The notes below the pieces were generated by a model. It was not told where the DNA came from, made no database searches, and saw only the letters and a list, made by a program, of their open reading frames with translations. A DNA stretch of 64,000 nucleotides from a virus (lineage: Duplodnaviria > Heunggongvirae > Uroviricota > Caudoviricetes). The position numbers and the translations under genes are program-made. Numbering within the stretch: the stretch's first letter is position 1; every line of letters begins with the position of its first letter. Where the stretch lies: IMG/VR virus record IMGVR_UViG_2541047913_000007; one strand, 5' to 3'. This document shows positions 1,564-44,365 of this stretch, piece after piece.

Positions 1564-1744
1564 GAATCCTCCCTGGCGGGATAATGTTGTGAGTCAGATA
1601 AGGAGCGAGCTGAAGTCCGGAAGTTACAGGACAATGGCAGGAGGAAGACTACAGCCCGCAATACGAAAAAGGCCGCGCAGTTGCGCAGCCTTATGAATTC
1701 TGGTTAAAATCCATTCGATTATAAAAATGTATATCTCATGCTGT

Positions 1745-1776
1745 TGCCCGAACCCACTCGGGCTTTTTTTTGCCCA
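1745..1776 (+). terminator. Hairpin plus T8 tract (gcccgaacccactcgggc tttttttt), intrinsic terminator-like on plus strand
   Basis: Inverted repeat followed by run of T read directly. Confidence 0.4.
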
Positions 1777-2082: not shown

Positions 2083-2268
2083 ATAGCGGTCATGTGATGC
2101 CGGTTTCCCGGTAACTCAGCACCGGTATCTGAGTCAACGTTTTCTCTACTGGGTCATTTCCGATACGCCCTGCCTGCTGACAGGCTTTCATCACATCTGA
2201 AAATATAGCACCCTGACTGATACTGTAGTACCTAAGGTTCCAGAAACTGTGATGTATCCGGCACAGAA

Positions 2269-2520
2269 AAGCCCCTCCGGAGAGGGGCTGGAGAGTGGCG
2301 CTATGTGCCATTGCATGATGCCGGGTGCCTCCCGGTGAGTTCAGTATCAGCACCTGAACCCGCACAGAAAGGATAAGGGTCGGTGACAAAACACCAGTCG
2401 CTGATTGCCCCTCCGCACAGGGGGATTCACCATGCCAGTTTCTTTTAACAAACTCCCCGCAAACCAGACAACAGTCAACCGCCTGAATTGTGAGGTATTT
2501 AAAAATTTCAACGGGTAACT
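2269..2520. repeat. Direct repeat unit B (~250 bp), diverged copy of unit A
   Basis: Same conserved blocks as unit A in same order. Confidence 0.7.
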
Positions 2521-5475: not shown

Positions 5476-5631
5476 TTACTCCTCAGGTTCGTAAGCTGTG
5501 AAGACAGCGACCTCCGTCTGGCCGGTTCGGATTCGTACCTCGCAGAGGTCTTTCCGCGTTACCAGTGCCGTCACAATGACGGTAATACAGATGACGATCA
5601 GGGCGACTAACATCGCCTTTTGCTGCTTCAT
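5476..5631 (-). CDS. hok: Hok/Gef family type I toxin (HokD/RelF-like, 51 aa)
   Basis: MKQQKAMLVALIVICITVIVTALVTRKDLCEVRIRTGQTEVAVFTAYEPEE is near-identical to E. coli HokD. Confidence 0.9.
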   Translation of the reverse strand: MKQQKAMLVALIVICITVIVTALVTRKDLCEVRIRTGQTEVAVFTAYEPEE

Positions 5632-5639
5632 AGCCTGCT

Positions 5640-5720
5640 TCTCCTTGCCTTTCGGCGTGTAAGAGGCTAACCTACATGTGACTAGCATGAAATTGGCCTC
5701 AGATTAATGTTAAGCGTCCT
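5640..5720 (+). ncRNA. Putative Sok-like antisense RNA region opposite the hok/mok leader (position inferred, not delimited)
   Basis: Established hok/sok architecture; no boundaries verified in sequence. Confidence 0.25.
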
Positions 5721-5867
5721 GCAAGACGCATAATGTTAACTGGGGCTTTTCTCTATCTGCCGTTGGTGTTCATGCCCGAGGCAGATAGCCTCAAGCACCC
5801 GCAGCAATTCTACTTAACTCACGTCACCTCGCCAATATGAAATCAATCAGAAAGGTGATCCATAAAA

Positions 5868-11725: not shown

Positions 11726-12281
11726 CCTCCTGAGGGTTGGTAATTAAGGAGTTCTCCACGGGTCAGGTGGAGTGCGTGCGCCGGACACGGGTGAGCATCC
11801 GGCACTGACAGTTTACTGAAAGGATATGTCCCTGAAAAGTCAGGGCATAACGCGAAAGCGCACGGCGAAATTGGTCTCTCTGTACGGTGTCGTTAAATTT
11901 AGTTCGACCGTGCACTTCCGGTTGTGGCACTCCGCGAAATGGCGCGGCGGTAAGTATGGCTGGGGTTTCCTCCATTGCTCCAGAAAATGCACCGGGTTGT
12001 CAGGTTGACCATACGCTTAAGTGACAGCCCCGCCACAATACCCATGCGTAGTCTTTGGTGGCATCAGTTCTACTCCGTGACTGCTCTGCCACCCTTTTTA
12101 AAGTGAATTTTGTGATGCGGTGAATGCGGCTATGCGCACGCGGAACAGTTAAAACCGTAAAGTGGTCTTTTACGGGGCGTAACGGGCATCCTTCTGTATT
12201 CCGGCGTTAATTGTTAACTGGTTAACGTCACCTGGAGGCACCAGGCACTGCATCACAAAATTCATTGTTGAGGACGCGATA

Positions 12282-27312: not shown

Positions 27313-27634
27313 CCCAATACCAATCCGAATCCACCCTTTGTCATCATTGAGAAATGGCAAGGAAGAAAAGGATGTTACTGCACGATTTGACAAATCCGCC
27401 AGAGCTATCGCATACTGATCGCACTGAACAAATAAGCGGTCTCCGCACCCGATAGCTTTGCGGCTTTTTTATGCCTGCAATTTGGCATAGTTACATCCGT
27501 ACAAAGGTCGGGTGGAGAGGCGTAATACAACACCCGCAAGGGGAATATGCCCAGAGCTTCTTATTTGGCTCAGTTGACACCCGACCGCCAGCTACTAACT
27601 GGCGGTTATAAACTAAACAAATAAGGAGGTCATC

Positions 27635-27919: not shown

Positions 27920-28168
27920 CTATACTCCGCGCCGAGGCCTCGAAAACCTCCCAAAAGCGGATTAAACCAACCCCGTCAGTGTTGGATTTTTTATGCCTGT
28001 TATTCAGTGATAGCACAGTGTGCGGTCACATCCCCGATCAATGTCGGGAGGGCGACGAATACAACACCCGCAAGGGGAATAAGTCCGCGGTATCTTTTGG
28101 GCCGTTTCGAGCCTCCCGGCACCACATCTTGTGGTGGCATTTCTCGAAAAAAGCCAAAGGAGGTCATC

Positions 28169-42799: not shown

Positions 42800-43201
42800 T
42801 CAGACTGCTATCCTGAACACCATGAAGCCATCCTCATCATCCGGCATTCGCTCAAAGCCCAGACGTTTTCCCAGCCGGATAAATCCTCGTCTTGCCGTAT
42901 GAAATTCGGCCCAGCGTCCGCCAGCCAGGCGGGTTAATGTCTTCACCTCCGGCAGATAACGCTCAACACTCTTACTCCCCGTACACACGCCCAGTAACAC
43001 CAGAACATAAGGGATACCATCGTCACTGAGCACAGAACGCAGCACCAGAAAACCATCCGGCGCTTCAAAGCAAAACGCCTGCTTTTTAAGGCAGGCGTCT
43101 TTAACTTCATTCATAAATTCAGGGTTGCGGGAATTTCTCACAACACGCTGCATATACCGGAGAATTCTGTCGTCCATTCTCTCACCTGAAACGGGTGCCA
43201 T
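42800..43201 (-). CDS. Hypothetical protein (133 aa)
   Basis: ORF track. Confidence 0.4.
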   Translation of the reverse strand: MAPVSGERMDDRILRYMQRVVRNSRNPEFMNEVKDACLKKQAFCFEAPDGFLVLRSVLSDDGIPYVLVLLGVCTGSKSVERYLPEVKTLTRLAGGRWAEFHTARRGFIRLGKRLGFERMPDDEDGFMVFRIAV

Positions 43202-43257
43202 ATCGGCTGAACCTCAGCAACCAGTTGACGGGGACTTTCGTCCCCGTCGCGGTTTTC

Positions 43258-43398
43258 CTACTGCTTACACTGTAAGAACGCCGCAAACTCCGCTCCCCAC
43301 AAATTCAGCCGGAACTCACACAACGAGCCGTGTAACATCCAGATGGTGAAGATTACCGTCATACAAATTGTGACGGTGATGAGCGATTTTTGCGACAT
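43258..43398 (-). CDS. hok: Hok/Gef family type I toxin, HokA-like (46 aa); not in ORF track
   Basis: Codon-by-codon translation MSQKSLITVTICMTVIFTIWMLHGSLCEFRLNLWGAEFAAFLQCKQ; ggagg SD 8 nt upstream. Confidence 0.6.
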   Translation of the reverse strand: MSQKSLITVTICMTVIFTIWMLHGSLCEFRLNLWGAEFAAFLQCKQ

Positions 43399-43582
43399 AG
43401 CGCTTGCCTCCTGAGTGGAGAGGCGCTAACCTTCTACTTGCTTAAGGTATGATGGTTAGGGCCTCGGGTTAAACAAAATGTTTGACTCGGGGCCTTTCCA
43501 CATCAGGCCTTCAGGTTCTCCCTCCAGCCATCAGCCGAAAGGCACCCGCGCATAATCTACGATTTTTGCCCTGCACGGGCAA

Positions 43583-43630: not shown

Positions 43631-44365
43631 TCAGAATTTCAGGCCAATGCCTGCAAATAAACCATCAGTTTTCCAGTCGCCAGAGCCTGAGCTTTCATAA
43701 GTGACGTCCATAGTAACACTTTCATTGAAGTTAAATTGCGCGCCGACAGACCATGCAATAGACGTTTTTTTGGTGCTGTTACTTTCAGAAAAACTACCGG
43801 CACCATGATTAAGATTGTCGTTAATTTTCAAGTCAGTGGTGACTTTTGCACCCCCCATACCAGCCATTGCATACACACTGAGGTATTCGTTAAACCGCCA
43901 CGAAGGACCGGATAGTAGACTCCAGTAATTAGCCCTGATATCAGTTCTCGCTGAAGCTGCCGGATTTTTAACCTCTCTGGATTCATCTCCTGGGTTAATA
44001 TCAATAAATGCCTGCGCATTAGTCATAGAACGCGCCCATGTAAAAGATGTTATAACACCAATCTCATCCGTTATCTCATAACGATACCTGATGCTCATCC
44101 CCTGAGGAGATTTGCCTTTGCCATCATGCCCCCGGACAGAAGCATCTGCATATTCGCCTGAATTGAAGTAGTGTCTGTTTGTAAAACGGTTAAAAGTATC
44201 AAGATTATAAAGACTTAAATCCTTAACAAAATTGTTCAGTCCAGAGAGCTGAAGATGAGCGTATCCGAAAGAAACTGTACTGTCACCTTGTGCTGCACAG
44301 GCAGGGGCTGCTACAAAACTCATCACAAAAGTTGTGCACGCAAAAATAATTCTGGTATGTTTCAT
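43631..44365 (-). CDS. lom: Lom/Ail/PagC-family outer-membrane beta-barrel protein
   Basis: 244 aa with signal peptide; C-terminus YESSGSGDWKTDGLFAGIGLKF matches lambda Lom C-terminus. Confidence 0.75.
   Translation of the reverse strand: MKHTRIIFACTTFVMSFVAAPACAAQGDSTVSFGYAHLQLSGLNNFVKDLSLYNLDTFNRFTNRHYFNSGEYADASVRGHDGKGKSPQGMSIRYRYEITDEIGVITSFTWARSMTNAQAFIDINPGDESREVKNPAASARTDIRANYWSLLSGPSWRFNEYLSVYAMAGMGGAKVTTDLKINDNLNHGAGSFSESNSTKKTSIAWSVGAQFNFNESVTMDVTYESSGSGDWKTDGLFAGIGLKF

Follow-up and report, generated by a model that had tools for sequence, protein, structure and literature searches.

A probable hok/sok-type cassette beside lom in a 933W/Sp5-like prophage, without a mok frame reaching the hok start in this allele

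The window, by which we mean the whole 64,000-nt stretch of viral DNA that was analysed, carries a short open reading frame on the minus strand (43398..43258) that begins with ATG, runs for 46 codons and ends in TAG. Its product, MSQKSLITVTICMTVIFTIWMLHGSLCEFRLNLWGAEFAAFLQCKQ, has one transmembrane helix and a C-terminal part containing two cysteines (Cys27 and Cys44), and a GGAGG Shine-Dalgarno sequence (SD; 43411-43407) lies 8 nt 5' of the start codon. This peptide is identical, letter for letter, to that of the original prediction, which had called a 46-aa Hok-family toxin from ATG 43398 with this SD. The length of the ORF is by itself no evidence, because 50 ORFs of at least 20 aa overlap the same 3-kb stretch around hok. 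The family assignment, however, stands: the peptide passes the threshold of Pfam PF01848 HOK_GEF (33.2 bits against a cut-off of 22, E 4e-8, residues 8-44) and is matched over its full length by PHROG 251 (85.8 bits, E 2.8e-24, residues 1-46), scores that place both sequence matches well beyond chance. Its residues C12, T14, L26, C27, E28 and E37 correspond to C16, T18, L30, C31, E32 and E41 in the logo of the largest survey of Hok peptides, positions that are conserved in >80% of them (Escalera-Maurer et al., 2025-26, bioRxiv 10.1101/2025.08.07.668861). At 46 aa it stands at the short end of a family whose members have ~50 aa and an N-terminal transmembrane helix. Homologous loci from Stx podoviruses, a lambdoid prophage, P2-like phages, an ETEC plasmid, Salmonella, E. 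albertii and Citrobacter were aligned, and the ORF is intact in all 57 distinct ones. Among homologous loci dN/dS is 0-0.5, and against the VT2-Sakai-type allele we obtained dN 0 and dS 0.295, the differences read from the alignment being seven synonymous and no non-synonymous changes; this pattern of substitution indicates that the peptide is under purifying selection.

Two prophages are present in the window, separated by the host genes rspB..ynfF (~17.0-27.1 kb). The second, which holds the locus described above, resembles 933W and Sp5 and has lom as well as a gene for a giant LPD38-domain protein. Judged by homology to E. coli DETEC-S792, it starts at ~27.2 kb, inside a truncated 4Fe-4S (ynfG-like) gene, and this gene is probably the integration site because the prophage begins within the truncated copy; the same comparison places the integrase of prophage 1 at ~15.5-16.8 kb. 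Prophage 1 has a hok locus of the hokW/hokD type (5476-5800, minus strand), which the Rfam sok model matches with 113 bits at 5626-5800. It comprises a 51-aa Hok (5631..5479, minus strand), an in-frame 70-codon mok starting at 5688 and a sok promoter of the form TTGCCT-17-TAACCT on the plus strand (~5645-5673); the homologue of its protein in strain DETEC-S792 is named HokD by PGAP. The expectation of two hok loci, one in each prophage, was therefore correct. Other Rfam matches at the gathering threshold were AsxR (1716-1768, plus strand), STnc100 twice (1772-1981 and 2259-2464, minus strand), DicF (12043-12094, plus strand) and, near the end of prophage 2, two copies of sRNA-Xcc1 (27506-27594 and 28043-28128, plus strand).

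Upstream of the hok cassette of prophage 2 lies lom (43631-44365; PHROG 108, RefSeq Ail/Lom), as had been proposed. The neighbour on the other side (42800-43201, minus strand) had been called a virion gene, a label that is unsupported since PHROG 610, to which it belongs, is a family of unknown function. The PGAP start of this downstream gene (ATG 43201) falls within the fbi element of the hok mRNA described below. The first residue covered by the PHROG 610 profile is residue 9, encoded by ATG 43177, so translation may in fact start there, 24 nt downstream of the PGAP call and outside the cassette.

A predicted hok promoter (43582..43554, minus strand; -35 TTGCCC at 43582-43577, 17-nt spacer, -10 TAGATT at 43559-43554) is situated just downstream of the lom terminator (43608-43588) recovered by the terminator scan. 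This promoter is weak, with 8 of 12 consensus matches by our own count, and a sigma-70 promoter scan flagged neither it nor the predicted Sok-like promoter, both of which scored below threshold. The one further match of the terminator scan at the locus was a plus-strand call at 43226-43249 (stem plus CGGTTTTCCT), which is the complement of the hok 3' stem-loop. The predicted full-length hok mRNA extends over ~355 nt, from a +1 near G43547 to the fold-back end (43547..43193, minus strand). Rfam model RF01794 (sok/hok leader) also aligns from 43547 (model positions 1-157, E 6.7e-8 in a 1-kb search), with a score of 42.1 bits that is below the gathering score of 59; a scan of the whole window at the gathering threshold matched the other hok locus and not this one. 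Folding of the 354-nt RNA gave a minimum free energy of -153.5 kcal/mol (z -6.95), with closure of the 5' and 3' ends in both the minimum-free-energy and the centroid structures. When this fold was imposed on 56 distinct sequences, 90.8% of cells were paired against ~40% in slid controls, and 30 pairs were changed on both sides against 14.3±2.2 in shuffles. These covariation counts are inflated by the two dominant lineages and by the derivation of the structure from the window sequence, so that we treat covariation as supportive and not as proof.

The ends of this transcript resemble the tac and fbi elements of hok mRNAs. In the folds of the full-length form the tac-like 5' element GGGUGCCUUUCGGCUGA (43531..43547, minus strand) pairs with the fbi-like 3' element CAGCCGAUAUGGCACCC (43193..43209, minus strand), which is complementary to the mRNA 5' end, while in 3'-trimmed or nascent forms its partner is a local one, GGAAAGGCCCC (43495-43485). 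The two tac/fbi helices (helices 1-2) have 97.8% and 86% of cells paired, with three pairs changed on both sides, and in a second pairing analysis helix 1 has 98.3%. Both sides of tac/fbi change together in the alleles of Salmonella diarizonae and Citrobacter (CGAU/AUCG and CGACC/GGUCG), and the modelled RNA has the long-range 5'-3' closure of the R1 paradigm. Columns 378-379 of the alignment covary with two alternative partners and were considered as a discriminator between the two folds; they cannot separate them because the covariation follows the two main lineages.

Within the body of the mRNA, a hairpin GCGCCUCUCC-ACUCA-GGAGGCAAGCGC (43400..43426, minus strand) sequesters the hok SD. Its helix 9 is 99.6% paired, helix 10 has three pairs changed on both sides, and the hok start codon pairs with the downstream coding sequence in helix 11 (98.3% paired). 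The probability of the SD being unpaired is 0.01-0.12 in all modelled forms, and thermodynamic modelling gave no opening of the ribosome-binding site after 3' trimming or when the Sok target was blocked. As the modelled site stays paired even after trimming, hok translation may be poor. The 3' untranslated region contains a stem-loop GACGGGGAC-GAAA-GUCCCCGUC (43227..43248, minus strand; helix 19) that is 99.8% paired, four of its pairs showing compensatory changes, and in 12 of 13 variants the sense strand forms the more stable version. By analogy with the R1 model, this stem-loop is likely the point at which 3' exonucleolytic trimming stops.

On the opposite strand, a predicted Sok-like promoter (43404..43432, plus strand; -35 TTGCCT at 43404-43409, 17-nt spacer, -10 TAACCT at 43427-43432) overlaps the hok ribosome-binding site. 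The hokW-type locus of the window and sokW of Sp5 have this same pair of hexamers with the same spacing, and AGGTTAG, the complement of the predicted -10 region, is invariant except for the third base, which is changed in a single locus (L087). The sokW promoter is functional, given that a promoter-less sokW mutant unleashes HokW toxicity (Takada et al., 2021, PMC8621323). Comparison of primers YO-421/422 with the Sp5 sequence indicates that this mutation replaces exactly TAACCT. Because the annotated sokW begins 7 nt after its -10, we place the start of the predicted Sok-like RNA near 43440. The RNA would then be ~60 nt long (~43440-43499, plus strand) and consist of a ~20-nt 5' tail, an 18-bp terminator hairpin (43459-43494) and UUUCC (43495-43499). 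It folds with -33.9 kcal/mol (z -7.2). In every one of the 17 variants the antisense strand forms the more stable hairpin, with a mean difference of 9 kcal/mol, and its G-U pairs correspond to C-A mismatches in the sense RNA; for the hok 3' hairpin the bias is reversed. Sequence variation within the cassette peaks in the target of the 5' tail, where mean column entropy is 0.61 compared with 0.32-0.36 in the CDS, tac, SD and 3'-hairpin segments; this fits diversification of antisense specificity. Between the two hok loci of the window, predicted tail-target duplexes reach about -40 kcal/mol for cognate and -15 to -19 kcal/mol for non-cognate pairs. An antisense RNA had been expected in the leader at 43400-43480; the expectation finds in silico support, with the promoter at 43404-43432 and the RNA body shifted to ~43440-43499. 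A cis-antisense Sok with its own promoter and a terminator hairpin, as in the R1 paradigm, is thus predicted at this locus.

What the cassette of this prophage does not have is a mok gene of the usual kind. None of the ORFs that open with ATG, GTG or TTG in this allele extends across the hok start, and the only candidate for a mok equivalent is a 15-codon upstream ORF, MWKGPESNILFNPRP (43503..43456, minus strand), which falls short of the hok start; its stop at 43456 lies 45 nt 5' of the hok SD. The same search did recover the in-frame 70-codon mok of the window's hokW-type locus, which served as a control. The upstream AUG at 43503 is nearly invariant, while the length of its ORF varies from 1 to 79 codons among the 57 loci. 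In most of them the frame from this AUG, or from one ~27 nt upstream, has 1-25 codons; in about 15 it has 61-79 codons and crosses the hok start in the +2 frame, which we take to be the same relative frame as that of R1 mok. Altogether, mok-like frames crossing the hok start occur in only 22 of the 57 distinct loci, from inconsistent starts, and the phase of the upstream frame is shifted by indels in the hairpin loop. The short ORF was also considered as a conserved leader peptide and rejected, since its length is so variable and conservation is confined to the AUG and the RNA around it and does not extend to the encoded peptide. The probability that this AUG is unpaired is 0.03 in the full-length fold and increases to ~0.6 once the 3' end is trimmed, and the predicted Sok duplex ends 28 nt upstream of the hok ribosome-binding site.

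The span originally given for the gene, 43202-43420, takes in the coding sequence with its ribosome-binding site but falls short of the whole functional unit. When loci from different phage types are compared, their homology sets in exactly at the -35 box and breaks off just after GGCACCC, and on this basis we define the cassette as ~390 nt (43582..43193). The same cassette (~370 nt from promoter to fbi) was seen in unrelated contexts (loci L031, L032, L034 and L035): after ogr at the end of P2-like phages (P88, and an ST131-type prophage beside serS), between gpJ and the tail-fibre gene of a lambdoid prophage, and on an ETEC plasmid. Judged from these sequence boundaries and contexts, it behaves as an autonomous mobile 'moron'. 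In one IMG/VR record with the Stx-phage-type allele (L052, ~2343-2420) unrelated sequence replaces the hok promoter and tac while the rest of the cassette is intact, so this appears to be a natural 5' deletion or recombinant. Enterobacterial-type hok also turned up in contigs labelled Xanthomonas pisi, Planococcaceae MAG, Vagococcus sp. and Pseudomonas lundensis (L005, L006, L008, L013 and L018, from genome_contigs), probably through contamination or mis-binning. The same locus occurs in VT2-Sakai (Sp5) between lom and H0145 (~46.9-47.2 kb), where it is without annotation, while hokW/mokW/sokW are annotated separately at 59815-60089; both modules are also present in other Stx phages, such as PA44 and WGPS9.

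The gene had been put forward as unannotated, which holds within the ORF track used for that call and not beyond it, as RefSeq, PHROGs and UniRef all have it. RefSeq WP_000078907.1 ("Hok/Gef family protein") is this exact peptide and occurs in many genomes, and there is no difference at the protein level between it, the member of Hok cluster 72 discussed below, the PHROG 251 entry and the product described here. The exact peptide is found on at least 1,000 contigs of a public protein collection under Hok/Gef names, and a homologous cassette is carried by 1,750 of 5,426 complete E. coli genomes (about a third) and by 198 phage records, mostly of Stx-converting phages. According to the text of the survey preprint, the identical peptide is its "72_1589", a member of the high-abundance 60%-identity cluster 72, which was cloned as pAZ3-72_1589 for an arabinose-induced toxicity assay; 42 of the 45 Hok homologues assayed were toxic in E. 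coli, and the only non-toxic constructs named are 19_179, 60_1482 and 69_1540 (Escalera-Maurer et al., bioRxiv 10.1101/2025.08.07.668861). Since these three are other constructs, the over-expression toxicity test proposed with the original prediction has in effect already been reported for the identical peptide, as far as the text of the preprint goes. The gene call is correct but ordinary, because the peptide is already publicly annotated and toxicity-tested. By the account in its Discussion, the survey leaves Sok, mok and the mRNA elements outside its analysis (bioRxiv 10.1101/2025.08.07.668861). Our literature search found no paper describing hok beside lom in Stx phages, and no study of Sok neutralization or of post-segregational or stress-triggered killing at this hok locus.

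Taken together, the locus is very probably a genuine hok/sok-type type I toxin–antitoxin module. Sequence and comparison point to a selected 46-aa Hok and a conserved mRNA fold, closed between its 5' and 3' ends, with a paired ribosome-binding site and start codon; the opposite strand has a conserved promoter and an antisense-optimized hairpin that would give a ~60-nt Sok-like RNA. The working of the module can be outlined by analogy with plasmid R1 and hokW-sokW. The full-length hok mRNA would be stable and inert, and slow trimming of its 3' end to the 3' stem-loop would allow local refolding of the 5' end, exposing the Sok target and the upstream AUG. As long as it is made, an abundant and short-lived Sok-like RNA would pair with the exposed region and lead to decay of the mRNA or to a block of its translation. 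When Sok synthesis stops, whether on prophage loss, on transcription shut-off by an infecting phage or on prophage induction, Hok would be made and would insert in the inner membrane, so that the cell is killed or lysed. In this allele, coupling to upstream translation would have to be dispensable or replaced, because no mok frame reaches the hok start. Work on R1 and hokW suggests that such a module may serve in prophage retention, in abortive infection against other phages or in helping lysis on induction.

Two alternatives concern the identity of the gene. Short ORFs are plentiful around the locus, and a chance ORF with a fortuitous Hok-like motif might be imagined, yet the E-values of the Pfam and PHROG matches, purifying selection, the conserved RNA architecture around hok and the toxicity reported for the identical peptide leave such a reading with next to no probability. 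It is also very improbable, if slightly less so, that the locus is a mere copy of a named gene, either HokA or the hokW-sokW of Sp5. The labels 'protein HokA' in some sources and 'MokW-like host killing' in phage records and PHROG 251 would favour a copy, and the best NCBIfam match of the peptide is indeed the HokA equivalog. That match (NF007290), however, is below cut-off, at 38.4 bits against 89, and the survey assigns the two to different clusters, HokA to 93 and this peptide to 72 (bioRxiv 10.1101/2025.08.07.668861). HokA of E. coli K-12 is the closest named chromosomal Hok, with 41% identity between our peptide and a HokA-type variant in File S1 of the survey; the two share SLCE, E-x-AAFL-x-C and a hard-coded second cysteine, but HokA differs in its 60%-identity cluster, its genomic context and its equivalog score. 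A hokW identity fails likewise, as the peptide has 36% identity over 42 aa with the hokW-type protein of the same window and the two genes occupy separate positions in VT2-Sakai. The named extra hok of E. coli B, hokX (between cysH and iap), is a different gene of 50 aa.

A more serious alternative is that the cassette is a translationally silent relic, in which the mok frame has been truncated, ribosomes never open the sequestered hok start and the locus is idle in this prophage. In plasmid R1, mok must be translated as far as the hok ribosome-binding site (PMC9841398), and here no ORF runs over the hok start; the SD has a probability of at most 0.12 of being unpaired in any modelled form, and inactivity has been reported for several of the chromosomal hok loci in E. 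coli. Against this stand the purifying selection on the peptide between two lineages that both are without a long mok (dN 0, dS 0.295), the conservation of the promoters, tac/fbi, the 3' hairpin and the Sok hairpin together with an ORF that is intact in 57 of 57 loci, and the occurrence of mok-like frames in only 22 of these, from inconsistent starts. We consider a silent relic unlikely on balance. The last of these observations also implies that mok does not look essential in cluster 72. Either Hok is translated in this cluster without a need for mok, or the mok-less alleles are poorly translated. Selection on the peptide between two mok-less lineages favours the former, at least as read from substitutions. 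We would therefore advance, as a tentative proposal of well under even probability, that cluster-72 cassettes represent a mok-independent variant of hok/sok, in which the Sok-like RNA would act by mRNA decay or through a minimal upstream ORF or standby-site mechanism rather than by translational coupling, and that possibly constitutes a redundant second killer module in Sp5/933W.

As a probable hok/sok module, the locus is like hok/mok/sok (parB) of R1 in its small Hok membrane toxin, its weak hok promoter, a long mRNA closed by tac and fbi, a sequestered ribosome-binding site and a protective 3' stem-loop, and in a predicted ~60-nt cis-antisense RNA with a promoter that overlaps the hok ribosome-binding site and a terminator hairpin further upstream in the leader. 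It differs from R1 in being prophage-borne and not on a plasmid, in having no mok frame to the hok start in this allele, and in the position of the conserved upstream AUG, which is here at the 3' end of the Sok-complementary region and not under the Sok 5' tail. The toxin is 28% identical to R1 Hok; at 46 aa against 52 it has the shorter N-terminus, and its tail ends just after the second cysteine. Nearer to hand is hokW-mokW-sokW of Sp5/933W (PMC8621323), likewise a prophage-borne module, from the same phage lineage and with the same Sok hexamers (TTGCCT-17-TAACCT), and the two coexist in VT2-Sakai and related phages. HokW has 51 aa and an in-frame 70-codon mok, whereas the locus beside lom has no such mok and a protein only 36% identical; hokW-sokW is found in the right arm near attR and the present locus after lom. 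In addition, hokW-sokW has been characterized experimentally, whereas the locus described here is nameless, and the functional study of it in the survey preprint concerns the toxicity of the CDS alone. The paper on hokW-sokW deals with that module only and leaves the second locus unmentioned (Takada et al., 2021, PMC8621323).

As a gene call, then, our analysis adds nothing to a peptide that is already in RefSeq, UniRef, PHROGs and the Hok survey. What is modestly novel is the inconsistent mok frame in an abundant Hok cluster, and the presence of an unstudied second hok/sok module in the archetypal Stx2 phages. Cluster 72 keeps every RNA element of R1 but a consistent mok frame and is therefore well suited as a natural test case for the universality of mok coupling. 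For the phages themselves, it means that textbook Stx2 phages carry two different hok/sok modules, of which only hokW has been studied. With two modules present and one studied, the part that Hok plays in lysogen biology may be larger than single-deletion phenotypes suggest. If the second module is indeed a redundant killer, this could explain why deletion of hokW-sokW merely halves phage release.
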